From Flavobacteriales bacterium (GTDB lineage: Bacteria; Bacteroidota; Bacteroidia; UBA10329): a stretch of 64,000 bases of DNA. Below, one piece after another: positions 31,073-64,000 of this stretch. Location: assembly GCA_044356305.1 (NCBI GenBank), contig JBIKWM010000008.1, positions 33,947 through 97,946 of the forward strand, given 5' to 3'. The position numbers and the translations under genes are program-made. A model generated the notes under the pieces. That model made no database searches and had not been told where the DNA came from. It worked only from the letters and a program-made list of their open reading frames with translations. The first letter of the stretch is position 1, and each line of letters begins with the position of its first letter.

Positions 31073-32701
31073 ATGACGCTACGAACCGGATCAGCGATCA
31101 TACTCCTCACTCTAGCGGCTATCGGTGCTCAGGCACAGGGCAACGCTGCATCTGAGGTGCTGGTACGCAAGTTCTACCCCACTGCTAACGAGCAGCTCAA
31201 GAACGGGCGCTACCCTGCTGCCGCTCAGAATTTTGCTCAGATGGTCGAATCGGACCCGAAGAATGCCAACCTGAACTATAAGGCCGGTATGAGTTATCTG
31301 GGCCTTCCAGGACAGAAAGATAAATCTGTTCCATATCTGGAATTTGCGGTCACCGACATCAACGAGAAGTACAAGGACTCGCCCAATGAGCGCAAGGCCC
31401 CGGTAGATGCCATTTACCAATTGGCCCGCGCTTATCACATCACATTCCAGTTCGATAAGGCCATTGAGCACTACCGTAAGTTTGCCAATGTGGCCAAAGT
31501 GACCGATCAGGCCCAGTTGGATGAGCTGAACCGTCAGCTCGAGATGTGTGAGAACGGCAAACTGATTGCCGAGACGCCCGTGAGCGCCACCATCAGAAAC
31601 CTCGGGATCAAGCTCAACACTAAGTTTGATGAGTATGCACCTGTGGTGGATGTGACCGAGAGCGTTATGATCTTCACTTCGCGTAGGCCCACAGGCACAG
31701 GCGGTTTTCAGGACCCGGACGGGGAGTATTACGAGGACATTTTCATCTCTGTGAAAGAAGATACGCTATGGGGCCTGCCCAAAAGCATCGGAGGCAAAGT
31801 GAACACTGACGGGCACGAGGCCAGCATAGGCCTGAGCCCTGATGGACAGGAGCTTTTCATATACAGGGATGATTATGGCGATGGGAATATCTACGCCAGT
31901 CAACTCATCAGTGGCGAGTGGCGGGTGCCCGTGCGCCTCGGAGAGGCTGTTAACAGCACCTACCGCGAGACTCACGCGTCCGTTTCGGCCGATGGTCAGA
32001 CCCTTTATTTCACCAGCGACCGCCCGGGCGGGCAGGGTGGCATGGACATTTGGCGGGCGCGCAGATTGCCCACGGGTGATTGGGCCAGAGCAGAGAATCT
32101 CGGGCCACGTGTGAATACCAGATTTGATGAGGAGGCCCCGTTCATCCACCCGGATGGAAAGACGCTCTTCTTTAGTTCGAAGGGACATACGAGCATGGGT
32201 GGATTCGACCTGATGTTCACCATTTCGGATGATGGTGGTGCTTGGTCGAGCCCAATGAACATGGGCGTGCCCCTCAATTCGGCCGATGACGACTACTTCT
32301 TTGTCATGTCTCCCGATGGTAAGCGCGCCTATTATTCCTCGAGCATGAAAGGTGGGCAAGGAGGCAAGGACCTCTACATGATTTACCTCGAACGCGAAGA
32401 GACTCCGCTCACTGTTTACAAAGGTGTTTTCAGTCCTGATGCAAGCGGGAATCTGCCACAGAACGCCTCGATATCTGTGACCGATAACAACACAGGAGAG
32501 CTGTATGGAACCTATCGGCCACGTGCCGATAACGGGCGCTTCATACTGGTGCTGAATCCGGGTAAGGACTACATGATCACATACGAGGCCGATGGATTTG
32601 CTTCGCGGTCGGAGAAGCTGTTCGTGCCTGAGAACACGGCCTATTTCGAGATAAACAGGGCCATTCAGATGAATCCGATCACCCTCGAGGGCGGGCGTTG
32701 A
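31073..32701 (+). CDS. secreted TPR + TolB-like PD40 beta-propeller protein (cluster paralogue 1, no OmpA domain)
   Basis: Signal peptide. TPR-like N-terminus. PD40 repeats (DGQELFIY, DGQTLYFTSDRPGGQGGMDIW, DGKTLFFSS). C-terminal beta-sandwich. Confidence 0.8.
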   Translation: MTLRTGSAIILLTLAAIGAQAQGNAASEVLVRKFYPTANEQLKNGRYPAAAQNFAQMVESDPKNANLNYKAGMSYLGLPGQKDKSVPYLEFAVTDINEKYKDSPNERKAPVDAIYQLARAYHITFQFDKAIEHYRKFANVAKVTDQAQLDELNRQLEMCENGKLIAETPVSATIRNLGIKLNTKFDEYAPVVDVTESVMIFTSRRPTGTGGFQDPDGEYYEDIFISVKEDTLWGLPKSIGGKVNTDGHEASIGLSPDGQELFIYRDDYGDGNIYASQLISGEWRVPVRLGEAVNSTYRETHASVSADGQTLYFTSDRPGGQGGMDIWRARRLPTGDWARAENLGPRVNTRFDEEAPFIHPDGKTLFFSSKGHTSMGGFDLMFTISDDGGAWSSPMNMGVPLNSADDDYFFVMSPDGKRAYYSSSMKGGQGGKDLYMIYLEREETPLTVYKGVFSPDASGNLPQNASISVTDNNTGELYGTYRPRADNGRFILVLNPGKDYMITYEADGFASRSEKLFVPENTAYFEINRAIQMNPITLEGGR

Positions 32702-32796
32702 TAACTGGGGGAAATTACCTTACCCCGTATCCTTAAAATAATATCTTTGGCGCGCTCCTAAAAAGGGGCCTCATCTTTTTTTCACCTGCGCGACCT

Positions 32797-35700: not shown

Positions 35701-36438
35701 CTTGCTGAAGAGCGCAAGAAAGCCGAGGCCGAACGTCAGGAGACCATCAGAATTGAAAAGGAGCAGGCTCGGATAAAGGCGGAGGCAGCAAAAGCAGAGG
35801 CCGAGGCGGAGGCAATTGCGAGGCGGAATTCAGCGATAGAGGCAGGCACCATAGCTGAACTCAGGAAGATCAATCAGAAGTTGATCGATGAGAATCGGGA
35901 TATCAAGAAGCAACTGGCTGACATCAACGCGAAGTTGGATATGATCATCAATATACTCTCAGCAGGCAAAGGGGATGAGACATTCAGTGAGGCGGACCTC
36001 ACCGAGCTCAGCAAAAAAGGGAAGTTGGTACTCAATAATATCTTCTTCGATTACAATCAGGCCAGTTTGCGCCCCGAATCAAAAAAGGAACTCAATAAGC
36101 TTGTCTCGTTCTTGAAAGGCAATCCGGATGTGGCCATTGTGATAGGTGGGCACACGGATTCGCGTGGTAACGATGAATACAACATGAACCTGTCCCAGGA
36201 GCGTTCTGAATCAGTGAGCTCTTATTTGGTGAGTAGCGGAATTGATGCAAGTAGGCTCTCTGCCCGTGGATATGGCGAATCGAAACCGATAGCAAGGAAC
36301 GAGAATGTTGATGGGACGGATAATCCAAAAGGTCGCCAGCTGAACAGGCGCATTGAAATAAGTATAGTGGGTGCCGGCATGGATGATGTGGAGGTGAAGA
36401 AGATCAAAGTCCCTTCAGAACTTAAAGTAGTTGATTGA
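32797..36438 (+). CDS. TPR + PD40 propeller + ~550-aa E/A/K/Q/P-rich spacer + C-terminal OmpA peptidoglycan-binding domain (paralogue 2)
   Basis: Same N-terminal module as 31073. OmpA-C signature ...GGHTDSRGNDEYNMNLSQERSESV...NRRIEI. Confidence 0.85.
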   Translation: MELTLGKNLNGMRCILSLSCLIIGLPLWVSGQPFGSGEFKTKFMKADAMIYDGRHEQALPLVMDLIATDSSNANLSFMLGSCYLFTKQYSKALYYLDKAVRDVSISHQEANPKERKAPGMAYFYLGKAHHFINEFDQAISNLYNYRSFIDMNDYAAYTEVKRHIEYSENAKELVENPVKTDIKNIGPTLNTNYPEFSPVISADGQTLIFTSRREGSTGGKLDQNGKFYEDIYVSKREGEDWSKPQSIGRNINTDGHEASIGLSPDGQTLFIYKDDNGDGNIYESSLINNEWSTPRKVGGDVNTKSWETHATISARGDMIVFTSNRDGGQGKRDIWFCKLLPNGQWGVAQNMGPLINTLYDEDAPSLSADGNTLVFSSQGHNSMGGFDIFRTEFVDGAWTAPENLGYPINTAEDDIFMVTTPDGRYAYYSSQREGGAGETDLYRVKLDVKRPSLLTVFRGLVIVPNMDFAGTKVVMDVQDQASGLSMGQFRPNATTGAYVLILEPGMSYRVTYSASGYGPVQKTIMSDDMSAYEEIMKAVDLEPVVFGGELEAQLKMKQDLERERAANERLLAEENARLQAAFEAAQAQAKAKEEEEARIKADEQASAEALAAEEARKAEEALRATEAKQQQEQAAETEQPQQTEPQPEIQPEPIAEQPVAVAPQENDALAKKRAAIEEMRKRMAQQAEDNAHNEPTEVTTKEITPTEQPEPQKSEPVAAEEPVVVQEAAAEPEKQPEKQPESAVVSEPVEQPEPESTQVSQQEEARVTEPVMEQQPEEVAVAEPVQNQKSDAERQLEEKRIKLQRQIDDLRQKQLGKSQELQNAADEAARLKAESDAKAREVEEAKAKAAEAERQRLAIEAETKKEAEAIAKAEREAQEIVKLEQKAHAEAEAKRLADEKAREEAEARKIAEEEARIKAEMEAQRKAEEAARKKAEAEEKARIERERMEQVLAEQRIKKEEEEKRKAVLAEERKKAEAERQETIRIEKEQARIKAEAAKAEAEAEAIARRNSAIEAGTIAELRKINQKLIDENRDIKKQLADINAKLDMIINILSAGKGDETFSEADLTELSKKGKLVLNNIFFDYNQASLRPESKKELNKLVSFLKGNPDVAIVIGGHTDSRGNDEYNMNLSQERSESVSSYLVSSGIDASRLSARGYGESKPIARNENVDGTDNPKGRQLNRRIEISIVGAGMDDVEVKKIKVPSELKVVD

Positions 36439-36457
36439 TAGGTCTTAAAGGGTCACA

Positions 36458-39400
36458 ATGATGATGAATCTACGTGTTTCCCTTATCGGCCCCATTTTTA
36501 ATCTATTTTCATCCGCTTTTTCAGGATCGATGAAAGACCGTACCGGACGGTCAGAATCAATGCTTCAACCTCGACTGACGTTTAGCTTTTTCGTATTGAC
36601 CGCCCTCATGCTTGCCATGACCGGGCAGGGGTATGCGCAATCGCGGGATATCCGTCAGACCACTGAGGAGGAGATGAACCGCGAGATTAACCAGACCCCT
36701 GAGGAACGCGCAAAGGCACGTATCAGAGTCACCCCTAAAACCGCACAGGAGCTATACTATAACGGCAATTTCAGAGCAGCACTTGATGAGTTTCTGATCC
36801 TTTTGGCTAAGAATCCCACCGACCCCGACCTCAATTTCTTTATCGGTGCATGTTATCTGGAGAGCAACATTGATAAGAAAAAGGCCGTCCAATATCTTGA
36901 GTTCTCTGTATCACAGCCTAAGTATCCGAAAGAAGCCATCTATCAATTGGGTAGAGCTTACATGTTCTCTCATCGCTTTGATGAGGCCATCACAACTTTC
37001 AACAAGTACAAGGACATTCAACGCGGGAAGGAGGACAATATAATAACCGGGACACGGATGATTGAGATGTGCTTCACAGCCAAAGAACTTGTGAAGTACC
37101 CACGTGATGTGACGTTTGAGAACCTTGGCATAAACATCAATTCAGCCTATCCTGAGTACAATCCATTTATTCCGGAGGATGAGTCTTTCATTGTATTCAC
37201 AACTAAACGTCCGGATTGTTTGGGTCTACAATTGGATTATGATGGTTATAAGACTCCTGATATTTATCGTGCAAGAACTACTCGTGGTAGATTTTCCGAG
37301 GCGCGGAACATAGGTTCCTCGGTCAATACGGAATGGTATGAGGAGTGCGTTGGTCTATCAGCTGATGGTCAGGAACTGCTTGTTTACATCGACAATTTCG
37401 ATGGGTACGATGATATCTACAACTCGCCCCGCAAGGGCCGATTCTTTGATGAGTACTATTCTCTCGGGCCGAACATCAACACCGATGAAATAGAGACCAC
37501 AGCGAGTATGAGCACAGATGGTCAGCTGCTATTCCTGACCCGCGAAGTGGGTAAGGGAGTAACAGGGACTGATATTTATATGTCGCGCAAGCTGCCCAAT
37601 GGTACCTGGGCCATTCCGACACGTTTGCCAGATGTGATCAATACCAAGTACAATGAGGCGTTCCCGCACCTTGCCGATGACGGTAAGACACTGTACTTCG
37701 CATCTGAAGGCCACATGAGCATGGGTGGCTTCGATATTTTCACCACCGAGTATGATGAACTGACCGGCACTTGGTCAGTACCACGTAATGTCGGTTATCC
37801 GATCAATACGGTGGATGATGATTTTAATATCTCAATGTCCACCACTGGGCGCTATGGCTATGTCTCTCAGTTCAGGGAAGAGGGGTATGGCGAGCGGGAT
37901 ATCTATATGGTGACTTTTAAGGACACCGACCCGGTAGAGACCATTGTTCGAGGTTCAATCACCAATATAAGAGATTCGCTTAAGAATGATCCGAGATATG
38001 AGGTAGGCAATTTCCTTATGACCGTGCGTAACATGGACACCGATGAGTTCATCGGTTATTACCGACCTAATAAAGGCAGCAGCAATTATGCTCAAGTACT
38101 TGATCCCGGTGAATATTGCGTTTACGTTGAAGGGGAGTCTTTCTTTGACACATCTGCCGTTATTGAGGTTCTTGGGCGTGATGCACAGGTACGTGAACAG
38201 ATTTTTGACTACACACTGAGACCTGATCCTAATGCCAAGCGCAAGGGTAAGGAAAGCAAATGCCAGATTTATGCATTGAGTGGAAGTGTTGATGGCATGG
38301 CCAAACTGTGGGAAGTACCGAGTGGCCGACTTATCCTTAATCTGGATAACCGGAAGGAGGTTTCATCGGTTCAATTCTCGCCCAATGGGAAATATGCTGC
38401 AGCCAGTTGCAATGATGGTAGCATCAACCTATGGAACCTACCTGATGGCACGCCTAGCAAGACATTGTATGGTCACAAAGGACGTGTGAACCGGGTCGTA
38501 TTCACACCGAACAGCCGCTACATCCTGTCATGCGGAGCCGATTCCACGGTGCGCTCTTTCGATATCGCGACAGGTAAGCAGACGAATCTTTACATTGGCC
38601 ATGTGGGCAATGTGAACGATGTGACTGTTTCGTCTGACGGCAATTACCTCATTACGGTATCAGACGATGGGAACGTATTGATGTGGGACTTCAAGTCCAC
38701 TGAACTTGTCGGGGTTTATGATGGGCATTCAGGACCGGTTCGTAGCGCCATGTACTCGCCCTGTGGCAATTTCATCGTAACCGGTGGCAGCGATGGAAAA
38801 GCAATAGTGTGGAACATCACCACTGCCAAACCCGAGACCATCTTCTCATTACATGGCACAGATGTTACTTCGGTTCGAGTGTCGCCCGACTGTAGCACCA
38901 TTGTGTCAACCGACCGCAAGGGATTCACCTATTCCTGGGACAGGAAGCTGGGTAGTGTAAAGAACGCCATGCCGAGCAATCAGGCCGTGGCATCGTCATT
39001 TATCAGCAAAGACTCGCGCTACATTATCACCGGAGGCAAGGAGCGGGACCCGCGCGTGTGGGCTTTCGGCAATGGTGATCAGGTAACCACCCTGTTCGGC
39101 CATAAGGGTTATGTCAATGATGTGGCATTCTCTCCTTGCATCAAGTTCCCCGAAAAGGAAATTCCCGACATCAAACCTGCCGACCCAAAGGAGGTACAGG
39201 CACTCGAGGCGGAGGTTCAGAAGCTTGAGGAGGAACTGGCCAAGATGGAACAACTCAAAAAGCTCGGTTACGACCCCAGCCTCTTGGATGTTGACATCAA
39301 GAACACGAAGAAATTCAAGGTGGGCGATAAGATCATTCTTGAACGTATCTACTTTGATTTCGATAAGTTCAATATCCGCGATGAGTCTGTTGTGCAGCTC

Positions 39401-39718
39401 AATCAGTTGCTGCTGTTCCTTACCAACCAGCCGACTGTGATTGTAGAGATATCGGGCCACACCGATTCGCGCGGCACTGACGACTATAATGAAAAGCTCT
39501 CCCGCAACCGTGCAAAGAGTGTCGTTGCATGGTTGGGCGAACGGGGAATCCCGAGCAAAAGAACTGTGGCCAAGGGATATGGAGAACGAAAGCATATTGC
39601 ACCTAACGAAAATCCAGATGGGTCGGATAATCCTGAAGGCCGTCAGATGAACCGAAGGATAGAACTCACCATCATTGGGGTCGCGGGCGAGAAGATCATC
39701 ACAACCGAAAACAACTGA
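36458..39718 (+). CDS. TPR + PD40 propeller + 7-blade WD40 propeller + coiled coil + OmpA domain (paralogue 3)
   Basis: Likely true start ATG 36560 (MLQPRLTFSFFVLTALMLAMTGQGYAQ). WD40 repeats (LWNLPDG..., ...SCGADSTVRSFD, ...VSDDGNVLMWDF). OmpA-C ...SGHTDSRGTDDYNEKLSRNRAKSV...NRRIEL. Confidence 0.85.
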   Translation: MMMNLRVSLIGPIFNLFSSAFSGSMKDRTGRSESMLQPRLTFSFFVLTALMLAMTGQGYAQSRDIRQTTEEEMNREINQTPEERAKARIRVTPKTAQELYYNGNFRAALDEFLILLAKNPTDPDLNFFIGACYLESNIDKKKAVQYLEFSVSQPKYPKEAIYQLGRAYMFSHRFDEAITTFNKYKDIQRGKEDNIITGTRMIEMCFTAKELVKYPRDVTFENLGININSAYPEYNPFIPEDESFIVFTTKRPDCLGLQLDYDGYKTPDIYRARTTRGRFSEARNIGSSVNTEWYEECVGLSADGQELLVYIDNFDGYDDIYNSPRKGRFFDEYYSLGPNINTDEIETTASMSTDGQLLFLTREVGKGVTGTDIYMSRKLPNGTWAIPTRLPDVINTKYNEAFPHLADDGKTLYFASEGHMSMGGFDIFTTEYDELTGTWSVPRNVGYPINTVDDDFNISMSTTGRYGYVSQFREEGYGERDIYMVTFKDTDPVETIVRGSITNIRDSLKNDPRYEVGNFLMTVRNMDTDEFIGYYRPNKGSSNYAQVLDPGEYCVYVEGESFFDTSAVIEVLGRDAQVREQIFDYTLRPDPNAKRKGKESKCQIYALSGSVDGMAKLWEVPSGRLILNLDNRKEVSSVQFSPNGKYAAASCNDGSINLWNLPDGTPSKTLYGHKGRVNRVVFTPNSRYILSCGADSTVRSFDIATGKQTNLYIGHVGNVNDVTVSSDGNYLITVSDDGNVLMWDFKSTELVGVYDGHSGPVRSAMYSPCGNFIVTGGSDGKAIVWNITTAKPETIFSLHGTDVTSVRVSPDCSTIVSTDRKGFTYSWDRKLGSVKNAMPSNQAVASSFISKDSRYIITGGKERDPRVWAFGNGDQVTTLFGHKGYVNDVAFSPCIKFPEKEIPDIKPADPKEVQALEAEVQKLEEELAKMEQLKKLGYDPSLLDVDIKNTKKFKVGDKIILERIYFDFDKFNIRDESVVQLNQLLLFLTNQPTVIVEISGHTDSRGTDDYNEKLSRNRAKSVVAWLGERGIPSKRTVAKGYGERKHIAPNENPDGSDNPEGRQMNRRIELTIIGVAGEKIITTENN

Positions 39719-39723
39719 CAACC

Positions 39724-42700
39724 ATGCGCAGCACCGGCATAGGGCGAGTGTCAGCACATTTATTGGGCATAGCACTCCTTGGCTTCATTTCGTTTATTGC
39801 CCCACAAGTAGCATCAGCCCAGCCTGTTGTAGGAGAGGAGCGGCAGAGTGTGTCGAATATTCAAGGCCCCATTGAGATCAAGTGCTTCGTTAAGGAGCTC
39901 ATGAACACTATGAAAGGGGTGATTGTCACCATTTATGAAGATGCTGATGGATCGCGTACCAAACTGAATGAACTCCAGAAAATAGTCACCCCAGGCAATG
40001 GCCAGTTCACATTCAAGTTGAACATCAACAGGCTGTACATGATAGAGTACAGCAAACCGGGCTACACTTCGAAGAAGGTGGACTTTGATACCGATGTGAA
40101 GATGGCACGGCCTGAACATACCAAAGTGCCAACATTTGAATTTGAGGTGCAGATGGTAAAAGATCTTGATGGTCTGGCTTTTAAGAGTTCGGTGGCCAAG
40201 GTCTTCTATCACATCAAGCGAAATGAACTGGACTATGAGCTTGATTACTCCAAAGAGGAAATGTTGGAGGAAGAGCGCAAGATCAAGGAGTTAGAAGAGA
40301 AAAGGCGATTGGCTGAAATAGCTGCCCAGAAGAAGCTGGAGGTGGAGAATCAGGCCCTCTCAGCACGTGAAAAGGACCGGTTGGCGGCTGAGTCAAAGAT
40401 TAAGGCGGCCGTGCTGATGGGCTCAGACGAAAAGAAGGTGAAGGAGCAGTTGGTGAAAGTTTTCTCTGATGTCGATTCGCTGCGCTACAAAAAGGCCGAT
40501 GCCATGTATTTGGAGCTGCAGAAGGAGCGCCAGCGCACCGGTGGCAACAACGCAGCCATTAACTATGGCAGCATTTTCGATGCGGCTGTAAGGCTAGAGG
40601 ATAAGGTTGTGGCTGATAAGGCCGCAGCCGATGCCAAGAAGCAGGAGGAACTCAGGAAAGTAAAGACCGATGTGGTGCAGAAACAGCAGGAGGCTATCCA
40701 AAAGGAACAAGAGGCCCAGAAGCTGATAATGCAGAACAAGCTGGCACAGGCCACTGCTGCCGAGGATGCAAGGAGGGCGGCTGAGGAAAAGGCCAAGCGC
40801 GAAAGCGTGTACAATGCATTGCTCAATTCAAGCGGGAGCAAGGAAAAAGCCATTGCCAACCTGATGACGGTGTTCGCCAAGGGCGATGAATACAAGGAAG
40901 AGAAGGCCGAGGCCATGTACATGGCCTATGAGAAGGCCAGGCAAGGGGGCAAGACCTTGGCGAACATGAACTACAGCGACCTTTTCTCGGCAGCGCGTCA
41001 GGCCGAGGATGCGGCTGTAGAGAAAAAGTTGGAAGAGGAGCGCAGAAAGGGCAATGACAAGACCAACGAGATAATCAAATCGTTGGATGAGAAGAAATTA
41101 AAGGAGGAATCTGCCCAGAAAACAAAGATTGAGGCCGCACTTGCCATAGCCAAGAACGAGACCGAAAGAAAACAGGCCTTTATTGAGGCATTGCCAAAGA
41201 ACGACCCTTACCGTCAGCAGAAGGGCGAGGCCATGTATGCTGAATTCCAGAAGCAGCAGCAGGCTCTGAACACTGGTGGCTCGGCCAAAACGGGGATTGA
41301 CTTCGGTTCAATTTTCGGAGCAGCCGAGACTGCTGAGCTTACCATCAAGAACAAGGAAAAAGAGGAATTGGCCCAGGCAAAGCGCCAACAGCAGGATGCT
41401 ATAGAGTCAAAGCTCGAGACCGTGCGTTCCGAAAAGAGCAAGATGGCCCAGGAAGCCGCAACGGTTGCCCAGGATGTACAGAAACAGAAACTGGGCGAGG
41501 CTGCAAACGCCAAGGAGAAGAAGTTGGCTGATGCAATAGGTAAGGCTGAGGGCGACCGATCAAAGGCCATTCAGTCCATCATGTCGACATTTGAGAAAGG
41601 GACTGAGTACAAGCAGGAACGTGCCGAAGCCATCTATGACGCCTATCTTGCTGAAATAGTGCGGATAAAGAACTCAGGGAACACCACGACCAAAATCGAT
41701 TTCGGTAAGCTGTTCGGTGCAGCTGACAAAGCTGAACTGGAGGCAATAACCAAGCAGTATGAAGCCAAGAAGGCCGAAGAGGACCAGAGGTTGGCCAATT
41801 ACACGGCCCAGCGGACAGAGAAGGCCGTAGATCTGGCGCAGGTCAAGGCCAAGGAAGCTGAGGAGAAGGCCGCCACTGCCGCTGCGGATCTTGCCAAGAC
41901 CAAATCGGACCTTGAGAATGAACGCATCAAGCGCGATCTGGCGCTCATGAAGCAGAAGGAACAGGAGGAGAAGACCTTGGCGATGGAGGAAGCCAAGAGG
42001 GCTGCAGAACTGAGGGAACGCGAACAGGCCTCTATGTCTCAATCTGAAAAGGACAAATTAGCCGCTGCCGAGAAACTTAGAAAGGAGACCGAAGCTGCAA
42101 GGGCAAAGCTTGAGGCTGAAGAAAGACGCAAAGCGGAAATCGCACAGGCGGCAGAGGAGAAACAGCGACAGGCAGACCTTGCACTGCAATCGAAGGCCGA
42201 AAAGGAACGTCAGGCTGCTATGGACGCTCAGAAGAAGGAAGAGGAGAGACTACGTAAAGAGAAGGAACTGGCGGACGCCAAGGCCAAAGCGGAAGAGTCG
42301 AAGCGATTGGAGGCCGAGCGTGCTGAAGCTGAGAAGAAGCGTCAGGCAGAGATGGCTGCCGCAGAGCGAAAGAAGGCCGAGGAACTGGCCGCAGCCCAGA
42401 AGGCAGAACGCGAGAGGTTGCTTGCTGCCGAACAGGCTGAGAAGGACCGGTTGGCAGCTGAGAATGCTCAGCGCACAGCTGCTGAAAAGGCAGAAAAGGA
42501 CCGGATTGCAGCCGCGGAGCGCAAAAAGGCTGAGGAATTGGCCGCAGCCCAGAAGGCAGAACGCGAAAGGTTGCTTGCTGCCGAACTTGCCGAAAAGGAG
42601 AGGATTGCGGCTGAGAATGCGAAAAAGGCTGCTGAGGAGAAGGCTGAGAAAGACCGACTTGCTGCCGAGGCCGCCAAGAAAGCGGCAGACGAGAAGGCCG

Positions 42701-43890
42701 AACGTGACCGCATACTTGCGGCTGAAAAGGCTGAGAAGGACCGTATAGCAAAAGAAGCGGCTGACCAGAAGGAGCGTGAACGCCTTGCATTGGAGGAGAA
42801 GAAGAAGGCGGAGGCCGATCAGATTGCAAAGGCGGCCGAAGAGAAGCGCAGACTTGACGAACAGTTCCGTTCACTTATTCAGGCCGGTGACCTGGCTTTC
42901 ACGGCCAAGAACTATAGCAAGGCAAAGGACGATTATGCCAAGGCTGCGGCACTCAAACCCGATGACCGCGAACTGAAGAGCAAGATCGGCTCGACAGATG
43001 CCGAGTTGAACAAACTGGCCATTGCCGATGCAGCTGCCAAGGAGAAAGAGCAGAAATTTCAGAATCTGTTGAAAGAGGGTGATGAGCAGATGGCCGATGG
43101 CGAGTACCCATTCGCGCGCAACACCTATTTCAAGGCTCAAGAGATGAAGCCCAATGACCCTTCGGTGCGGGCAAAGATCAAACAGGCTGATGATGCCATT
43201 GCCGCGGCCACCAAGGCCCGCGAGGCAGAACAGGCCAAGGAACGTCAGTACATTGTGCTGATGCAGGACGGTGGAAAGGCCATGGACTCCCGAGACTATG
43301 TCACGGCCAAGAAGAAATACAACGATGCCCTGGCTCTGAAACCTGGATCGGCCGATGCGACCAAGAAGTTGAGCGACATCAAAGTCATAGAAGATCAGAT
43401 GGCTGCCGCGACCAAGGCAGAGGATGAGAAGAAGCGTCAGGCGCAGGAGGCATTTGCTCAGAAGCAGAAAGAGGAGGAGGAGCGTAAGGCTGCCATTGCC
43501 CTTGAACGTCAGAAGGCCCTTGGCGATATTACAAATGGCAATGCGCAGACCCAGCCTGCCGCAGGTGGTGCCCCGAGCTCGGCCGAGCAGGAGCGCCAGC
43601 GCAAGTTTGAGGCACTCAAGCTGCAGATTGAGGACATGAGCAGCAATGCTGATGAACGCAGGAGGATGTTCCTCTCAGAACTTGCCAAGCTTTATCCAGA
43701 GGGTGTCACCTATGAGGCGGTTCCCGGTTCGAACTACAAGTTGGACCGGTATGTGATAAACAACAAAGGCGTGGTGAACGTGTACGAGAAACGTACATGG
43801 GACTGGGGCGGTGTGTTCTACTTCAAGGACAACGGAGTGGCCATCACCGAGTCGCTCTACAACCTGGAGCTGAACCGATACAAGAAGTGA
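39724..43890 (+). CDS. giant secreted coiled-coil protein (E/K/A-rich, ~1000 aa helical) with N-terminal beta-sandwich and C-terminal TPR-like repeats
   Basis: Signal peptide. Four ~65-aa modules (...F.KG.EYK.EKAEAMY...). 51-aa tandem repeat AAERKKAEELAAAQKAERERLLAAE... x2. TPR-like KAKDDYAKAAALKPDD. Confidence 0.75.
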   Translation: MRSTGIGRVSAHLLGIALLGFISFIAPQVASAQPVVGEERQSVSNIQGPIEIKCFVKELMNTMKGVIVTIYEDADGSRTKLNELQKIVTPGNGQFTFKLNINRLYMIEYSKPGYTSKKVDFDTDVKMARPEHTKVPTFEFEVQMVKDLDGLAFKSSVAKVFYHIKRNELDYELDYSKEEMLEEERKIKELEEKRRLAEIAAQKKLEVENQALSAREKDRLAAESKIKAAVLMGSDEKKVKEQLVKVFSDVDSLRYKKADAMYLELQKERQRTGGNNAAINYGSIFDAAVRLEDKVVADKAAADAKKQEELRKVKTDVVQKQQEAIQKEQEAQKLIMQNKLAQATAAEDARRAAEEKAKRESVYNALLNSSGSKEKAIANLMTVFAKGDEYKEEKAEAMYMAYEKARQGGKTLANMNYSDLFSAARQAEDAAVEKKLEEERRKGNDKTNEIIKSLDEKKLKEESAQKTKIEAALAIAKNETERKQAFIEALPKNDPYRQQKGEAMYAEFQKQQQALNTGGSAKTGIDFGSIFGAAETAELTIKNKEKEELAQAKRQQQDAIESKLETVRSEKSKMAQEAATVAQDVQKQKLGEAANAKEKKLADAIGKAEGDRSKAIQSIMSTFEKGTEYKQERAEAIYDAYLAEIVRIKNSGNTTTKIDFGKLFGAADKAELEAITKQYEAKKAEEDQRLANYTAQRTEKAVDLAQVKAKEAEEKAATAAADLAKTKSDLENERIKRDLALMKQKEQEEKTLAMEEAKRAAELREREQASMSQSEKDKLAAAEKLRKETEAARAKLEAEERRKAEIAQAAEEKQRQADLALQSKAEKERQAAMDAQKKEEERLRKEKELADAKAKAEESKRLEAERAEAEKKRQAEMAAAERKKAEELAAAQKAERERLLAAEQAEKDRLAAENAQRTAAEKAEKDRIAAAERKKAEELAAAQKAERERLLAAELAEKERIAAENAKKAAEEKAEKDRLAAEAAKKAADEKAERDRILAAEKAEKDRIAKEAADQKERERLALEEKKKAEADQIAKAAEEKRRLDEQFRSLIQAGDLAFTAKNYSKAKDDYAKAAALKPDDRELKSKIGSTDAELNKLAIADAAAKEKEQKFQNLLKEGDEQMADGEYPFARNTYFKAQEMKPNDPSVRAKIKQADDAIAAATKAREAEQAKERQYIVLMQDGGKAMDSRDYVTAKKKYNDALALKPGSADATKKLSDIKVIEDQMAAATKAEDEKKRQAQEAFAQKQKEEEERKAAIALERQKALGDITNGNAQTQPAAGGAPSSAEQERQRKFEALKLQIEDMSSNADERRRMFLSELAKLYPEGVTYEAVPGSNYKLDRYVINNKGVVNVYEKRTWDWGGVFYFKDNGVAITESLYNLELNRYKK

Positions 43891-43916
43891 TTGCCACGTA
43901 CTGCTGACAACCTGCG

Positions 43917-45842
43917 ATGCATCTGAGGTCGATACCACTCCTTTTCGTTTTCCTCAACATCACTGCCATAGCTTTCGGTCAAGCAGCCGATGATGGTGTG
44001 AAGGGCGCCACGCCACAGGCATTGGCCAAGAACTATTTTGAGATAGGTGACTATCGCAATGCGCTGAAGGAGTATCAGAAGCTGGTGGCCGAGAAACCCG
44101 AGGACCTTTTCTACAACTACCGCGTAGGTCTGTGCCACCTCAACCAGAACATTGACAAGAGCTGGAGCCTGCCCTATCTCCGCAAAGTGGTGGCCGATGC
44201 CAACAGCGACCCGGAGGCATTGTATGATATGGGCCGTGCCTTCATGTACAACGAGCAGTTGGACAGCGCTATCCTATTCTTCAACAAGTACAAGGGAAAG
44301 GTGAAGGATGGTGCGCGCCTGGTGGAGGCCACACGCAACGTGGAGTTCTGCACCCAGGCCAAGAAGCTGATGGAGAAACCGCTCAATGTGAGTTTCTACA
44401 ATCTTGGCAAGGACATCAACAGTGAGGGGCCAGAGTTCAATGCCTTTATCCCTGACGATGAGAGTTTCATTGTCTATTCTACCAAGCGCGACAAAGGGGT
44501 GATGGGCAACAACCTCGACTTTGACGGTTATAAGCCGGCAGACGTGTTCTGGGCCAAAGCCAAGGGAGGTGAGTTTGACAAGGCCAAAAGTGTGGGTGCC
44601 ACCATCAACACCGAATGGGTGGAGGAGATCACCGGCCTATCGGCCAATGGCGAGTACATGTTTCTTGCCATCGATAATGCAGAGGCCTATGATGATGTGT
44701 GGGTGACGGAGTTCAACGGGCGGCAATGGAGCAAGACCATCCCTTTCGGGCCTACCATCAACACCCAGGACCCCGAACTGGCCGCTTCGAGCTCGCCCGA
44801 TGCGCAGGTGCTGTACTTCTCGCGCCAGAGCTCGGCTGTTGAGGGTTTCGGTGGGTTGGACATCTACATGGCCAAGAAGCTGCCCAATGGCCATTGGAGC
44901 ACGGCCGTGAACCTGGGCCCTACCGTTAACACGCAGTACGATGACTCGTACCCACAGGTGTCGGCCGATGGGCGCACCCTCTACTTCAGCAGCATGGGTC
45001 ACAACAGCATGGGTGGCTACGATGTGTTCAAGAGCGAGTGGGACGATAAGTATCAGCGCTGGGGAAGGGCCGACAACATCGGGTATCCGCTCAACAACAC
45101 GATGGACAATTTCACCTTCTCGCGCACCGGAAACATGCGCTACGCCTATGTGGCGCAGTTGCGCAAAGGCGGGCTCGGTGACCTCGACATCTATCGTGTC
45201 ACATTCAACGACATCCCGAAGGAGATGACCGTTCTGGTAGGCAATATTGAGCTGTACAACTCTCCCAACAAACGAACCATCAACCTGCATACCTATACCA
45301 AAGACGGTCAGGTGAAGGTTTTCACCGATGAGTATCAGCCCACCGATGACCCCACTTGGACCTACAAGGAGACCAAGAAGGAGGCCATTAAGGATGGCGA
45401 GAAATATGAGATAACCATCATCGGGTCGTACAAGGGGCAGGTGCAGAAATTCACCCCCGAGAATTTCCCGAAGGATGTGGCGAACTTCAAATGGGTGGAT
45501 ACGCGCATCAGCAAGGTGAAGGTGCCCGTGGTGCCCACCAAGATTGAACCGGTGCCCTACAAGGGCATGAAGGAGCCCATCATCAGCATTGTGATAAAGG
45601 ACTATGCGGGCAAGACGGTGGGCAAGTACACCGCCAATCGCAGGTTGGGCCGTTTTGTCGCCTCGCTCGAGCCATCGGACCACGGGCTGTACACCGTCAC
45701 GATGTCGGCACCGGGCTACGAGACCACCGAGGAGAAGGTGAGTGTGGTGGGCATGGGCCAGTATAAGACCGAGATAAAGAAGACTTTCAAGCTGGTAGAG
45801 AAGGGCCTAACACTGCCCGCACCGGCCACCGCCCCCAAATGA
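43917..45842 (+). CDS. secreted TPR + PD40 propeller protein with C-terminal beta-sandwich domains (paralogue 4)
   Basis: Signal peptide MHLRSIPLLFVFLNITAIAFGQ. Same module order as 31073. Confidence 0.8.
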   Translation: MHLRSIPLLFVFLNITAIAFGQAADDGVKGATPQALAKNYFEIGDYRNALKEYQKLVAEKPEDLFYNYRVGLCHLNQNIDKSWSLPYLRKVVADANSDPEALYDMGRAFMYNEQLDSAILFFNKYKGKVKDGARLVEATRNVEFCTQAKKLMEKPLNVSFYNLGKDINSEGPEFNAFIPDDESFIVYSTKRDKGVMGNNLDFDGYKPADVFWAKAKGGEFDKAKSVGATINTEWVEEITGLSANGEYMFLAIDNAEAYDDVWVTEFNGRQWSKTIPFGPTINTQDPELAASSSPDAQVLYFSRQSSAVEGFGGLDIYMAKKLPNGHWSTAVNLGPTVNTQYDDSYPQVSADGRTLYFSSMGHNSMGGYDVFKSEWDDKYQRWGRADNIGYPLNNTMDNFTFSRTGNMRYAYVAQLRKGGLGDLDIYRVTFNDIPKEMTVLVGNIELYNSPNKRTINLHTYTKDGQVKVFTDEYQPTDDPTWTYKETKKEAIKDGEKYEITIIGSYKGQVQKFTPENFPKDVANFKWVDTRISKVKVPVVPTKIEPVPYKGMKEPIISIVIKDYAGKTVGKYTANRRLGRFVASLEPSDHGLYTVTMSAPGYETTEEKVSVVGMGQYKTEIKKTFKLVEKGLTLPAPATAPK

Positions 45843-54734: not shown

Positions 54735-54968
54735 ATGAACGCACGAGAAGAACTGCACCGGGTCATTGACTCAATTGAAGATGAAAAGACCGTGGAAGGA
54801 TATCTCGAGCTTATCAGGTCAATCATTCGCGAACAGCGCGGAGGGCTCATATCGTCACTTTCTGCTGCACAGCGATCTGAGCTTTATGCGAGTTGGGCCG
54901 AGAGTGAGACGGATATGGTGGAAAGGACCACTGCCATGGTCATGGCAAGGTTCGAATCGTTGAGATGA
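54735..54968 (+). CDS. putative antitoxin of the ParE/RelE pair
   Basis: 77 aa; 4-nt overlap with the toxin gene. Confidence 0.55.
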   Translation: MNAREELHRVIDSIEDEKTVEGYLELIRSIIREQRGGLISSLSAAQRSELYASWAESETDMVERTTAMVMARFESLR

Positions 54969-55249
54969 AGGTAATCTGGACCCCGAAGGCCGAGAAGAGC
55001 TTGGTCGAGGTGGTGGAATTCCTTACAGAGCATTGGGGCATAAAGGCAGCGCGCTCCTTTGTCCTTCTGACTGAGGACCTCACAGATAAGCTATCCAGAT
55101 TCCCCGAACTCGGTCCGGTTGAAGATGAGGAAAAGGGTATAAGGGGAATACTTCTGACCCCGCACAACAGGCTGTTCTATCGTATCAAAGGAGAGGCCGT
55201 TGTGATTCTATCGGTGTTCGACACACGGTCCGAAAGGCCGAAGTTCTGA
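54965..55249 (+). CDS. type II toxin, ParE/RelE family
   Basis: 94 aa, MKVIWTPKAEKSL...LFYRIKGEAVVILSVFDTR typical ParE/RelE. Confidence 0.75.
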   Translation: MKVIWTPKAEKSLVEVVEFLTEHWGIKAARSFVLLTEDLTDKLSRFPELGPVEDEEKGIRGILLTPHNRLFYRIKGEAVVILSVFDTRSERPKF

Positions 55250-59919: not shown

Positions 59920-60525
59920 TCACTGCTTCATTATGTACGCCAGTTTGTAGTACCTGCGTTCGGGGGCGGTGGGGGTGCCCACACTCACGTTCACATACTC
60001 GCCTGCGGCAAAACCGGGGTTCTCGGCACTGCTCGCCACCGATACGATGAACTTGTCTGTCAGGTCGGGGGTGCCATTGGCGCCATCGCACAGCACCCAT
60101 CCTGCGGGGATCGAGGCAATGGTGCCGCTCCACATGATGATGCCCCCTTGCGGAGTGCCCTGCCCCGGGGCATTGGCCACCTCAAGTTTCACCCACGAGC
60201 CGAATGGAGCAACAGGGGAGGGCGGGTCGAAATGGCGGTAGTACCAGAAGTAGCCGCTGTCGGTCTCGTATATGAGCAGGCCATCGGGCAGGGTGTCGTT
60301 GTAAAAGCTCTGCATCAGGTCGCGCTGAAGGATGTTCAGCCTCGGCACCAGGATGCCCTTGGGCCGTGTGATGGGCACTGTGAGCGGATTGTACGGGTTG
60401 GCCGCATCAAGTATGGCGCGCGGGTCGGGCGAGGCGGTGCCTATGCCGACATTGTTGGTGTTCACCTGCGCCATGGCGGGGCTCAGGGCCATCAGAGAGA
60501 GTACGAGCGTAAGAATCCTTCTCAT
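59920..60525 (-). CDS. secreted protein with phage-tail-collar (tail-fibre-like) domain
   Basis: Start ATG 60525 ([20 protein letters not shown]). ...[32 protein letters not shown] matches the collar domain consensus. Confidence 0.65.
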
Positions 60526-60675
60526 CCGTTCCGGGGTAAGGGAAGGGCGCAACCCTTCTTTTTTTGCGGGGCGAAAGATATGCAGAGAAACCTTGAGCCG
60601 CCCATGTCGGGGCCTGAATATCACTGCGCTGTGGCTAGTTGCCTCGGCTGTCAGTAACGGTACATTTGGCACATC

Positions 60676-61152
60676 ATGTTTTCACCCTTTGAGATAGGTA
60701 CCGCCACCGTGGCCGATATGGCCCAGGTACATGCGCTCATCTGCGAGCTGGCGGCTTTTGAGCGTATGCCTGGTGCAGTCAGCATCAGTGCCACAGATCT
60801 GGCCCGCGACCATTTTGGTGCGGCCCCCGCCTTCAGGCTGTTGGTGGCACGGGCAGATAGTCAGGTGGTGGGCATGGCGATCTACTATCCGGTCTATTCC
60901 ACATGGGAGGGCAAGAGCCTCTACCTCGAGGACCTGATTGTGGCCGAGGCGCACCGTGGCAAGGGCATCGGTACTGCACTGTTCAGGGCCGTGGCGCACG
61001 AGGCCGCCACCACCGGCATGGCCCGCCTGCAGTGGCAGGCTCTGCACTGGAACGAGGGGGCGCTCAGGTTTTACGCCCGGGCCGGTGCCACCACCGATGG
61101 CGAATGGGTCAACTGTCGCCTCAGTGGCGAGGCACTCAGGGCCTTCATGTGA
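60676..61152 (+). CDS. GNAT-family N-acetyltransferase
   Basis: ...LIVAEAHRGKGIGTALF... acetyl-CoA binding motif. Confidence 0.8.
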   Translation: MFSPFEIGTATVADMAQVHALICELAAFERMPGAVSISATDLARDHFGAAPAFRLLVARADSQVVGMAIYYPVYSTWEGKSLYLEDLIVAEAHRGKGIGTALFRAVAHEAATTGMARLQWQALHWNEGALRFYARAGATTDGEWVNCRLSGEALRAFM

Positions 61153-61242
61153 ATGGCCATTGTCTCCCCTCAACCGCTCATGAGCCCGGACGGGCCAAGT
61201 TGTCCCTGACACTTCTCACTAATTCCATTCCTTTGCCTGTGA

Positions 61243-62262
61243 ATGAAAGCGGGCTGCGGTAGTAGAAACTCAGGCACAGCTGGCACCTTTGCCGAGAAGG
61301 AACGCGCCCTCAATTGGAACCTCTTTGACCTCCGCACTTACGATGGCCGCACCGGCCGCTTCCACAACCCTGACCCCATGTGGCAGTATGCCAGCCCCTA
61401 CATGGCCATGGGCAACAACCCGTTGAGTGTGGTGGACCCTACGGGGGGAGAGGGCAGCGAAGGAGGCTCCTGTCCACATAGTCTGGTCGGTACATGTTGC
61501 GAATGTGAAGGAACTTGCCCCACGGGCAATTCATCCAGTAACTCAAATGGATTGACATGGAGCTGGGGTGACGGGCAAGGGACCTCAGGTGGAACAGGTG
61601 CACCGAAACTTGGTGCTGCCGACCTTCAGGATTTAATTTTCAAATCAAATAACGAAGAGGAGATCCATGCCCTGTATCTCGCACTGTCAACTGTTGATAA
61701 TTGGATATATGAGGCGCGAGCAAGTAATATTCGTGAACAAGGGCTCGCCAATGGAACTGTTGGAAATCTAACAGCGAGTCAGGATGGGCCCGGTGATGGG
61801 CATGGTCAGTCAAGGCTTGTCAATTCAGATTCAGGCCCAAGACCATTTTCCTCCAATCCATATATTCATGGAGCAAAATCCTTTATGGATTATGTTTATG
61901 GAACCTTCTATGATATTGGAACCCTTATTGAGCATATAACTTATACCAATCCGAATGTAATAACAGGAATGCCACCTGACGGCATTATTGGAGGACCATT
62001 GAAAAATGGAGATAAGGCGATTCGACTAGGCAAAATATTATTGAACAGAAATGCTTGGCACACCGTAAAAGATACTTTTTTGAAAAGTGCTGGAGGGGGT
62101 CGAGGTAAGTGGGCACATATTGTGGGGACTAATCCGGATATTGATTATATTGGGGGAAGGATTGTTCTTGCCGGTAGGGATGCATTTCGTGGTAAAACAC
62201 ACCCAACGGAGTACACTCTTGACATGTTTATAGATTTTCTTTTAAAAAATGGGTTGAAATAA
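61243..62262 (+). CDS. orphan RHS C-terminal toxin tip (conserved RHS-core end followed by unknown ~290-aa toxin domain)
   Basis: Starts FAEKERALNWNLFDLRTYDGRTGRFHNPDPMW...DPTG (RHS core terminal motif). There is no upstream RHS core (stops and a GNAT gene). Lower GC. Confidence 0.7.
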   Translation: MKAGCGSRNSGTAGTFAEKERALNWNLFDLRTYDGRTGRFHNPDPMWQYASPYMAMGNNPLSVVDPTGGEGSEGGSCPHSLVGTCCECEGTCPTGNSSSNSNGLTWSWGDGQGTSGGTGAPKLGAADLQDLIFKSNNEEEIHALYLALSTVDNWIYEARASNIREQGLANGTVGNLTASQDGPGDGHGQSRLVNSDSGPRPFSSNPYIHGAKSFMDYVYGTFYDIGTLIEHITYTNPNVITGMPPDGIIGGPLKNGDKAIRLGKILLNRNAWHTVKDTFLKSAGGGRGKWAHIVGTNPDIDYIGGRIVLAGRDAFRGKTHPTEYTLDMFIDFLLKNGLK

Positions 62263-62269
62263 TTAAGGA

Positions 62270-62626
62270 ATGGCAAACGCAAAGTTGCTCATTTGGACTC
62301 AATCACAAGAGCCAACAGATTGGATTACTGGATTGTTGCAAATTCCAACAGAACTGAAAGACTGGGAGCAAGTTATATCGGAGAATGGCCAATGGTGCTA
62401 TTATATAAATCTTGATTTGATGGATGAATATCTTGATTACATGGCCCATTATATGGATATTCTTGAGCCTAAATTGAAAGAACTTAACGCCTTAGGGATT
62501 AAGAGTAACCAGATTACAATATGGTTTGAAGATAAAAACAAATCGCAAAATAATTATGAATTTTATTCTTATAATTTACTTCGAATGGGTCGGTCTGAAA
62601 TCAATTTCTGCTTGTCCATTTATTAA
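62270..62626 (+). CDS. putative cognate immunity protein
   Basis: 118-aa AT-rich ORF 7 nt downstream of the toxin tip. Confidence 0.5.
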   Translation: MANAKLLIWTQSQEPTDWITGLLQIPTELKDWEQVISENGQWCYYINLDLMDEYLDYMAHYMDILEPKLKELNALGIKSNQITIWFEDKNKSQNNYEFYSYNLLRMGRSEINFCLSIY

Positions 62627-62762
62627 TAGCATCGCTTACAAGCTACCTCCAGCAGTTTCAAAGAAATCGCCCTCCAGCCCGATCAAGTGTTCCGAGGGGT
62701 CACTTGGTCGGTAATAAGTTCTCACTGTTTGCAACAGTGATGAAACAAAAAATATCCATATT

Positions 62763-62990
62763 TTGGCCTTGCAAATGCGAGCGGCCACCAATAGCAGAAC
62801 TTCCAACGCAGGCGGCACCGTAACCAACAGCTACCAAAGCCCCTTTGCCGAGAAGGAACGCGCCCTCAACTGGAGCCTCTTTGACCTCCGCACCTACGAT
62901 GGCCGCACCGGCCGCTTCCATAGCCCCGACCCCATGCCATGCAGGCCTGTGGAGAGCTTTTGCTTTCTATCTTTGTGTAATAGATGGTGA
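62763..62990 (+). pseudogene. second orphan RHS tip, truncated ~13 aa after the DPxx motif
   Basis: ...FAEKERALNWSLFDLRTYDGRTGRFHSPDPMPCRPV...*. Confidence 0.55.
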
Positions 62991-63250
62991 TCATGGAAAC
63001 AAGTCTAAGGATACGAATGTCGGACCTTGATATGGGGCTCATTGAATCCATCAGGGCGCTTTTCGGCCCAGACAGGGAACTGACACTTACCATAGAAGCT
63101 GCATCCGATTTCGGCCTCAATGCCACCGAGACCAAGAAGCAATACCTGATGCGCTTGACCAAGGCTGTGGCTAACCTGGAAAAAGGAGAGAAAGTGGTAC
63201 TCTCGGAGTCGGATCTTGACGAGATGGTGCTCGATAGGCTGAAAAGATGA
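62984..63250 (+). CDS. putative antitoxin of the YoeB-type toxin (not YefM-like)
   Basis: 88-aa ORF (alternative start ATG 63017) overlapping the toxin gene by 4 nt. Confidence 0.45.
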   Translation: MVIMETSLRIRMSDLDMGLIESIRALFGPDRELTLTIEAASDFGLNATETKKQYLMRLTKAVANLEKGEKVVLSESDLDEMVLDRLKR

Positions 63251-63516
63251 GGAGGATTGTCTTTGAACAGTCGGCCTATGACGACTTCTTTGACTGGGGC
63301 GTGTATGACAAACGGATCTTCATTAAGATCCACGACCTGTTGAAAGCCGCTATGCGTGACCCGTTCAAGGGGCCAGGCAAGCCAGAACCGCTAAAAGGCG
63401 ACCTGAAAGGATTCTGGTCGCGAAGGATCGATGACAAACACAGACTGGTGTATCGTGTGAACTCAGATGGCGATCTAGAGGTGATCAGTTGCAAGGGGCA
63501 CTATGGCGACCGTTGA
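63247..63516 (+). CDS. type II toxin, YoeB/Txe family
   Basis: ...YDDFFDWGVYDKRIFIKIHDLLKAAMRDPFKGPGKPEPLKGDLKGFWSRRIDDKHRLVYRV... closely matches YoeB. Confidence 0.85.
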   Translation: MRRIVFEQSAYDDFFDWGVYDKRIFIKIHDLLKAAMRDPFKGPGKPEPLKGDLKGFWSRRIDDKHRLVYRVNSDGDLEVISCKGHYGDR

Positions 63517-63757
63517 CCAAAGCATGGTTTTCAGCCACTTAAGCTCTTTTGCCAAGAACGAATGCGCCCTCAACTGGAGCCTCTTTGATCTCCGCACCTA
63601 TGATGGCCGCACCGGCCGATTCCACAACCCCGACCCCATGTGGCGGTATGCCAGCCCCTTAATAACGAGTGATTTTGCTCTGTCTGCCACCTTTGCACCT
63701 GTAGATGAAGATGGACTTGCTTCATGTTTTGAATCTGCTCTGCAGCGCAAGGATTAG
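63503..63757 (+). pseudogene. third orphan RHS tip with short (~38-aa) C-terminal extension
   Basis: ...FAKNECALNWSLFDLRTYDGRTGRFHNPDPMWRYASP... Confidence 0.55.
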
Positions 63758-63790
63758 TTTTGTTGCCAAGCGCTAAGTTGATTTACTGTT

Positions 63791-64000
63791 GTGGAGGAGA
63801 AAGAGATAGACCCGGATCGGATTGCTGATTTTTGGCTGGAATCAGCTGAGCGTGATTTTGACACGATGCAGAATCTCATGCGGTCGGGCGACAGAAGCTG
63901 GGCTTTATTTCTAGGGCATCTTGTTCTTGAGAAGCTGTTGAAGGCCCATTTTGTCAAGAAAAACAGGATGCACGCCATCCATAGCCACGACCTCCTTCGC
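63791..64000 (+). CDS. HEPN-domain protein, 3'-partial (runs off window end)
   Basis: GTG start after an in-frame TGA at 63779. ...SWALFLGHLVLEKLLKAHFVKK..HAIHSHDLL is HEPN-like. Confidence 0.45.
   Translation, partial: MEEKEIDPDRIADFWLESAERDFDTMQNLMRSGDRSWALFLGHLVLEKLLKAHFVKKNRMHAIHSHDLLR

Follow-up and report, generated by a model that had tools for sequence, protein, structure and literature searches.

The 64,000-nt stretch of DNA analyzed here, referred to as the window, is part of contig JBIKWM010000008.1 (assembly GCA_044356305.1, positions 33,947 to 97,946 of the forward strand) of an uncultured member of Bacteroidota, and near its right end it carries an island made of repeated ends of the core of an rhs toxin gene. 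We found that this island is probably a dissociated (“orphan”) rhs tip array, which was severed from its main gene, holds toxin-antitoxin (TA) modules between its repeats and was acquired horizontally. Its layout is unusual, but the locus belongs to a well-known kind and is not a new system. The closest named FBPase relatives of the source organism were “Flavobacteriales bacterium” metagenome-assembled genomes (83% identity), and its proteins fell into clusters of only 2–8 members.

The island is ~3.5 kb long. Its larger part lies in the window (61143–64000, plus strand), and the remainder, ~680 nt past the window end, was seen in contig L005, which matches the final 781 nt of the window at 98.5% identity and extends beyond it. 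The order of modules is leader, block 1, toxin tip and immunity gene; leader and block 2; YefM-like antitoxin candidate and YoeB; block 3; HEPN and MNT; block 4, with a block on each side of every cassette. The features are listed below (ORF, open reading frame; GC, guanine plus cytosine content; aa, amino acids).

61153–61287, plus strand: leader 1, homologous to the block 2 leader by alignment, probably decayed rhs core
61243–62262, plus strand: ORF1, orphan RHS C-terminal module of 339 aa, above the TIGR03696 cut-off
61288–61399, plus strand: block 1, conserved rhs core-end repeat
62270–62626, plus strand: predicted cognate immunity gene encoding 118 aa, with 34% GC and its start 8 nt past the ORF1 stop codon
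62627–62843, plus strand: leader 2, with in-frame TAATAA stops, common to contig L014 of another population
62844–62933, plus strand: block 2, cut off after ...GACCCCATG; the ORF at 62763–62990 is a remnant, not a toxin
62934–63547, plus strand: TA cassette 1, 50% GC, antitoxin candidate and YoeB
62968–62975, plus strand: promoter -7 box of cassette 1, TATCTTTG, which fits TAnnTTTG
62984–63250, plus strand: antitoxin candidate (YefM-like), 88 aa, assigned by position only
63247–63516, plus strand: YoeB toxin, 89 aa, with an ATGA start/stop overlap with the antitoxin candidate
63548–63659, plus strand: block 3, without a leader; the ORF at 63503–63757 starts inside yoeB and is a remnant
63660–64000, plus strand: start of TA cassette 2, with the HEPN gene from 63791 running off the window edge
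63755–63762, plus strand: promoter -7 box of cassette 2, TAGTTTTG, which fits TAnnTTTG
Contig L005, 1312–1408: block 4, a fourth, degenerate copy ~520 nt past the window end, which reads MGTFAEKECALNWSLFDLRTCDGRTGRFHNPGPIR*

Repeated ends of the rhs core

A repeat search detected three direct 117-nt copies in the window (61283–61399, 62839–62955 and 63543–63659), which were 79–89% identical to the reference copy, and the 38-nt degenerate core of the block had three exact matches in the window versus none in 100 shuffles. The original prediction, which a model had made from the letters and their translations, described three ORFs with an RHS core-end peptide. Both the ORFs and the peptides were as described: ORF1 and two stub ORFs (62763–62990 and 63503–63757) encode FA(E/K)(K/N)E(R/C)ALNW(N/S)LFDLRTYDGRTGRFH(N/S)PDPM. 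The same prediction took these ORFs for fragments of the rhs core end, which was borne out when the profile search was run. ORF1 scored 35.6 bits with TIGR03696 (Rhs_assc_core; cut-off 32.5) over profile positions 25–75 of 76, and the two stubs scored 20.8 and 18.0 bits, under the cut-off. In addition, RHS proteins aligned by tblastn to 61225–61443, 62832–62933, 63530–63664 and the site of block 4. The blocks are therefore coding sequence of the RHS core end.

DPxG, the motif at the border of core and tip, was found in ORF1 only (...NNPLSVVDPTGG, residues 58–69), where DPTGG (residues 65–69, 61435–61449) aligned with DPTGG, DPSGG and DPDGG of its homologs. Blocks 2, 3 and 4 all end upstream of the motif and are bare core-end remnants of 90–112 nt with no toxin. 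What had been counted as three toxin tips was thus reduced to one, since only ORF1 has both a toxin domain and an immunity gene. Short stubs do follow the other two blocks as had been stated, but their tails are about 17 and 37 aa rather than 13 and 38, and the tail of the stub at block 3 contains the HEPN promoter box. The stub ORFs are by-products.

Blocks 1 and 2 share a leader of ~130 nt on their 5′ side, which contains stop codons. The translated leaders (PFLCL*MKAG and ILALQMRAA) aligned weakly with YYPFGMEMPGRN of RHS proteins, and the tblastn match of one RHS protein (P0005) started at 61225 and ran across the TGA at 61240. These alignments suggest that the leaders may be decayed rhs core and that the ATG of ORF1 may be an old internal Met codon; upstream of ~61225 the similarity was weak, and tblastn lent no support to an RHS origin. 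Blocks 3 and 4 have no leader and start within ~8 nt of each other, and blocks 2 and 4 end at the same base, ...CCCCAT(G). The simplest account of the block is that it represents the stretch in which different rhs lineages remain similar enough to recombine. On the opposite strand of block 2, public gene tables (L001, L003 and L018) list a 73-aa gene (62700–62921, minus strand), most likely a false gene call caused by the high GC content of the block.

The single intact toxin module and its immunity gene

ORF1 consists of the core end (residues 16–69), a linker of ~170 aa and a toxin domain of ~95 aa (residues ~240–339, 61960–62259). Among 1.84 billion proteins, 36 representative homologs of the toxin domain besides the query were identified, and the domain occupied the extreme C-terminus in every one of them. 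Homologs P0052 (2717 aa), P0072 (751 aa) and P0049 (534 aa) had RHS-type core ends, and block 1 is the only block joined to a toxin that full-length RHS proteins carry elsewhere. In the family alignment (ORF1 numbering), H273, K276, N297, P298, G317 and T322 were invariant and D299 and K318 nearly so, with the consensus GGPLxKGxKAIKLGKYLFNPxxFHxVK...VGxNPDI...GK. The domain matched no Pfam, NCBIfam or PADLOC family, no PDB sequence and no PDB fold; its structure model had a pLDDT (predicted local distance difference test score) of 72.9. Judging from the pattern of His and Lys residues, we would guess that it is a small nuclease or RNase.

The 118-aa protein encoded 8 nt downstream also matched nothing in Pfam, NCBIfam, PADLOC or PDB, and its family has a typical length of ~115 aa. 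In two unrelated loci, homologs of this protein were encoded directly 3′ of toxin-domain homologs (L015, 1340–1690, and L017, 7021–7356; 33% and 44% identity, respectively). A conserved position of this kind after the toxin is characteristic of cognate immunity genes, and it establishes the pairing of this predicted immunity protein with the ORF1 toxin. The gene could shield the host when neighboring cells deliver the cognate toxin. A ~95-aa RHS-borne toxin domain without a Pfam family, together with its immunity family, is what is new here; both were previously undescribed.

The ORF1 protein was identical in five metagenome assemblies, with one synonymous difference among the strains compared. 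Neither ORF1 nor the stubs had a Pfam match at E ≤ 0.1, and no YD-repeat shell (PF05593 RHS_repeat or TEN/YD) was detected in them. An orphan toxin that has neither this shell nor an export part would be undeliverable unless recombination joined it to a full-length rhs gene at another genomic site. No TAnnTTTG promoter box was found upstream of ORF1, and no terminator-like site between the preceding GNAT gene and ORF1. Lacking its own box, ORF1 would most likely be transcribed by read-through from GNAT, if it is transcribed at all.

Search for a main rhs gene

The absence of a full-length rhs gene from the window, which had been part of the original prediction, was supported in two ways. The large ORFs of the window were PD40, WD40, OmpA, peptidase or glycosyltransferase proteins, and tblastn with eight RHS-type proteins against all 64 kb returned only the block copies and the toxin domain match. 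The housekeeping genes downstream of the island in L005 (8.8 kb) did not contain an rhs core either. Nor does the array follow a full-length rhs gene from the same clade; its neighbors are GNAT on one side and an aspartokinase-like gene on the other. When 185,579 species genomes were scanned for the exact pattern, five chance matches appeared, in unrelated GC-rich genomes such as Roseomonas, Thioalkalivibrio and Streptomyces. No match to the exact block or to a back-translated degenerate pattern was found in JGI metagenome contigs, a collection evidently without samples of this organism, and the block peptide retrieved only other orphan fragments from a collection of 5.8 billion proteins, where just three candidates were scored.

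Insertion of the island at the 3′ end of a GNAT gene

The left neighbor of the island is the GNAT gene that had been predicted upstream (60676–61152), with minus-strand genes beyond it. On the right, as seen in L005, an aspartokinase-like gene is followed by housekeeping genes. We identified the empty site in a related species (L012 and L013; ~76% nucleotide identity), in which GNAT directly abuts the aspartokinase-like gene. Homology to this relative ends at window position 61142 and restarts at L005 position 1460, and the ancestral 3′ end of GNAT (GGGCATATTTGTAG) is kept at the right junction, shifted 3.5 kb downstream. Retention of these last codons indicates an insertion in the lineage of the window and not a loss in the relative. 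The 3.5-kb unit is an insertion at the GNAT 3′ end, and the sequence AGGGC is common to both junctions. No integrase, tRNA or Rfam family was found in the island or its flanks (gene tables of the window and L005, and an Rfam search). Two more distant relatives (L019 and L020) were not syntenic and uninformative for the insertion site.

Four further assemblies (L001–L004) contained an identical GNAT-to-ORF1 junction, and downstream parts of the island were found again in L003, L005, L006 and L018. The samples in which the island occurred were JGI 3300043803, 3300044615, 3300044986 and 3300059473, and SRR27428743. Since independent assemblies agree, an assembly gap hiding a core is excluded, and an assembly artefact as the source of the layout was ruled out in the same way.

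Base composition also differed among the modules. GC content was 61–66% in the blocks, 44% in the tip (41% in its toxin domain), 34% in the immunity gene and 49–50% in the TA cassettes, compared with 55.7% for the rest of the window; along the sequence it dipped to 37–46% within the region versus ~56–62% around it. The claim that the region is AT-richer therefore held, and the tip and immunity gene were below both the blocks and the remaining window, as expected of orphan rhs tips. Different GC contents of individual modules speak for separate origins, and horizontal acquisition is the best explanation for the arrival of the array.

Toxin-antitoxin cassettes between the blocks

The presence of YoeB and HEPN genes among the rhs fragments had been noted before, and both families were recovered by profile searches. 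YoeB matched PF06769 at 1e-30 (106 bits vs 27) and TIGR02116 (96.4 bits vs a cut-off of 51.8), and its C-terminal ...GHYGDR is consistent with the His-Tyr pair of YoeB. The 88-aa ORF in front of it had no Pfam, NCBIfam, PADLOC or PDB match that would place it in the Phd/YefM family. The HEPN fragment in the window matched PF05168 at 2e-9. In L005, the full HEPN gene encodes 133 aa with ARYDSYKH as the Rx5H motif and overlaps a 104-aa MNT nucleotidyltransferase gene (PF01909/PF18765, GS...DxD motif), after which block 4 follows. This pair therefore has both hallmarks of a HEPN/MNT module, an Rx4–6H HEPN protein and an MNT partner. PADLOC returned matches for MNT only and nothing for the toxin, immunity protein, antitoxin candidate, YoeB or HEPN.

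Counting both strands, the window contained only 16 copies of the Bacteroidota -7 box TAnnTTTG. Within the region, plus-strand copies lay 15 nt before GNAT, 16 nt before the ATG of the YefM-like gene and 36 nt before the HEPN start, and by this sequence criterion both TA pairs are predicted to be autonomous and self-promoted.

Comparison of L003 with the window showed nine differences in 196 nt of the YefM-like antitoxin gene (63040–63235), with nearly identical flanks; either recombination or diversification of the antitoxin could account for this patch. A third TA pair was observed in the window at 54735–55249 (plus strand), in a GC dip between genes for an M1 peptidase and Mfd. It is composed of a 77-aa ORF and a 94-aa toxin that is ParE-like according to a precomputed Pfam match in L021, with an ATGA overlap and no rhs blocks on its sides, implying that TA insertion in this lineage is independent of blocks. 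In L012 (12042–12546), a ParE-like pair is found instead between a PorP/SprF gene and Mfd. TA modules thus seem to move between intergenic sites in the lineage.

Recombination at the blocks

In contig L014, which represents another population, the leader and block corresponding to block 2 were ~90% identical to those of the window and continued via SPYMVMGNNPLSVVDPTGG into a different tip of ~100 aa. The position of this tip is occupied by the YefM-like/YoeB pair in the window strain. Blocks 1 and 2 and the L014 block differ mostly synonymously, as read from the block alignment. A G7 run was observed in L014 right after the DPTGG codons (330–345), which shifts the frame of the downstream ~100-aa tip by one base; misassembly, a pseudogene or a switch prone to slippage could each account for it.

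Variation among close strains was concentrated in block 3. Strains were 99.2–99.9% identical to the window over the shared region, with 10 differing positions inside the 117 nt of this block. The window and L005 differed at 12 positions, 10 of which fell inside it (binomial P = 3e-7). The block 3 variant of the window is nearer to blocks 1, 2 and 4 than the common variant is, and block 3 therefore carries a gene-conversion patch. These observations confirm the turnover of cassettes that had been proposed: the blocks recombine, and tips are replaced between populations.

Comparison with known systems

The island resembles enterobacterial orphan rhs-CT/rhsI arrays (PMC2935791, PMC3150448, PMC3967940) in having a core-end fragment followed by a variable tip of lower GC content and a downstream immunity gene, and also in its direct core repeats, tip replacement between strains and recombination at core fragments. 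However, the enterobacterial arrays (see also PMC5727410) come after a full-length rhs gene from the same clade, whereas none was present here in the 64 kb of the window or in 8.8 kb downstream. The present array is, moreover, a discrete insertion in a housekeeping intergenic site, and only one of its four core fragments still has a tip, the others having been lost; the other three fragments bracket classical TA pairs. A likeness to the Rhs pairs of Salmonella Typhimurium (Starsta et al. 2020, PMC7043789) is that an orphan toxin without a delivery part and with an adjacent immunity gene could act in the producing cell. In Salmonella, the orphan adjoins the main rhs gene and expression from internal promoters was demonstrated, whereas ORF1 has no promoter box. 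The acquired interbacterial defence and orphan immunity clusters of gut Bacteroidales (compare a 2025 preprint, PMC12247911) offer a further parallel within Bacteroidota, in that immunity genes are kept without a deliverable toxin; those clusters are arrays against effectors of the type VI secretion system, some with a recombinase, and differ from our island, which has an intact toxin ORF, one immunity gene and no recombinase.

A typical counterpart in Bacteroidota was the array L017 (GCA_019187325.1), which shares its toxin family with ORF1 (P0041; the last 100 aa are 56% identical) and its immunity family with the 118-aa protein (44% identity). Its orphan ORFs also begin a few dozen residues ahead of the YD...DPxG core end. 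In contrast to the one tip, truncated blocks and two TA pairs of the window, L017 has at least five tips, each with a complete, nearly identical core end including DPSG. This locus gave no strong Pfam match and two weak or faint ones, neither of them to a TA family.

TA cassettes also occur in chromosomal integron arrays, where they lie between direct repeats and could stabilize the array against deletion. Integrons use an integrase and structured attC sites. The island differs from them in that it has no integrase, its blocks have no structure and its repeats are toxin-gene coding sequence.

Origin and possible function of the array

In the C-terminal-displacement model, core fragments undergo homologous recombination with each other, and the excised circle, made up of a core fragment, a tip and “any intervening genes”, then enters a matching core again (PMC2935791). 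Orphan rhs-CT/rhsI modules have been described (PMC3150448) and can be activated via recombination with the main rhs gene (PMC3967940). For the orphan array proposed here, the 90–112-nt core-end repeats would serve general homologous recombination and gene conversion. If two of the repeats recombined, a circle with one repeat and the intervening content could be looped out, and this circle could re-enter any matching rhs core end (Jackson 2009), presumably that of a master rhs gene. The TA pairs would travel along as intervening genes, and their post-segregational killing would oppose repeat-mediated deletion of the array. Current models stand, as the island fits C-terminal displacement and orphan modules that behave like TA loci. 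It provides a natural example of an rhs tip array that is uncoupled from the main gene and has moved as a unit into a housekeeping site, and in which, as the gene-conversion patch shows, the repeats recombine. It also indicates that classical TA modules can become array cassettes bracketed by toxin-gene repeats.

Several observations weigh against a severed, recombining tip array. No full-length rhs gene with a matching core end emerged from genome, metagenome or protein searches. Conserved residues are altered in blocks 3 and 4 (R to C, Y to C, D to G), and parts of the array are therefore decaying. Homologous recombination alone does not explain how the TA pairs first arrived between two blocks, and entry into a site without resident rhs homology is unexplained, the AGGGC at the junctions being only 5 nt long. 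Besides, toxicity, immunity and expression are predictions from sequence, with an empty fold search.

These points left room for other explanations. ORF1 and the immunity gene might be expressed inside the cell as a third type II TA module of an addiction island, which would be kept by post-segregational killing or growth control and would need no delivery and no master rhs gene. The failure to find such a gene agrees with this, as do the intact ORF1 frame with its ATG in all five assemblies, an ATG at the same aligned position in the leaders of block 2 and L014, the close spacing of the immunity gene, and the possibility of read-through from GNAT with no terminator-like site between. Moreover, orphan and main Rhs pairs of Salmonella are expressed from internal promoters and act as type II TA modules (PMC7043789). 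However, both bona fide TA pairs have a TAnnTTTG box and ORF1 does not, its toxin-first order is the reverse of that of the YefM/YoeB pair, the strains are too alike to show selection on the frame, and the bare blocks 2–4 would be left unexplained; overall, we regard this explanation as rather unlikely. A more far-reaching proposal is in our opinion quite doubtful: the ~100-nt rhs core-end block would be a portable homology handle, by which any selfish module between two such blocks could be looped out and put back at another matching block through ordinary homologous recombination, an integrase-free exchange of tips and TA pairs, with ORF1 and its immunity gene as a third TA-like module and the island persisting without any rhs gene.

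It is improbable that the island is an inert relic, that is, a decaying foreign rhs fragment which landed by illegitimate recombination and into which TA pairs inserted independently, so that nothing except possibly these pairs is used. The altered core residues in blocks 3 and 4, the stop codons in both leaders, the block-free TA pair at 54735–55249 in another intergenic site and the missing master gene would all fit such a relic. It is contradicted by the intact ORF1 and immunity gene in every assembly, and by the conversion patch in block 3 and the alternative tip of L014, which show ongoing recombination at the blocks. In addition, the TA cassettes fill the space between blocks exactly, with the shared end base of blocks 2 and 4 and the nearly coincident starts of blocks 3 and 4, a layout that independent random insertions and deletions would seldom give. 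As for a site-specific recombinase that captures tips and TA pairs at the block as an attachment site, the repeat-cassette-repeat layout and recurrent block boundaries do recall an integron. Yet no recombinase gene is in the island or adjoining it, the Rfam search was empty and the block is plainly RHS core coding sequence, making this explanation extremely improbable. An attC-like structure of the block was considered and rejected, as the blocks have no stable single-strand fold (folding z-scores from +0.5 to -1.4).

Other features of the window

An ORF of 1388 aa that matched no Pfam family at E ≤ 1e-5 (39724–43890, plus strand) was located within a plus-strand run of PD40, WD40, OmpA and TPR genes (31073–45842). 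Adjoining GNAT is a gene for a 250-aa protein (59920–60672, minus strand) with a weak phage tail collar match (PF07484, E = 4e-4); shorter versions with PF26696 PTL_trimer are listed in public gene tables, and the gene was found beside FBPase in all relatives examined.

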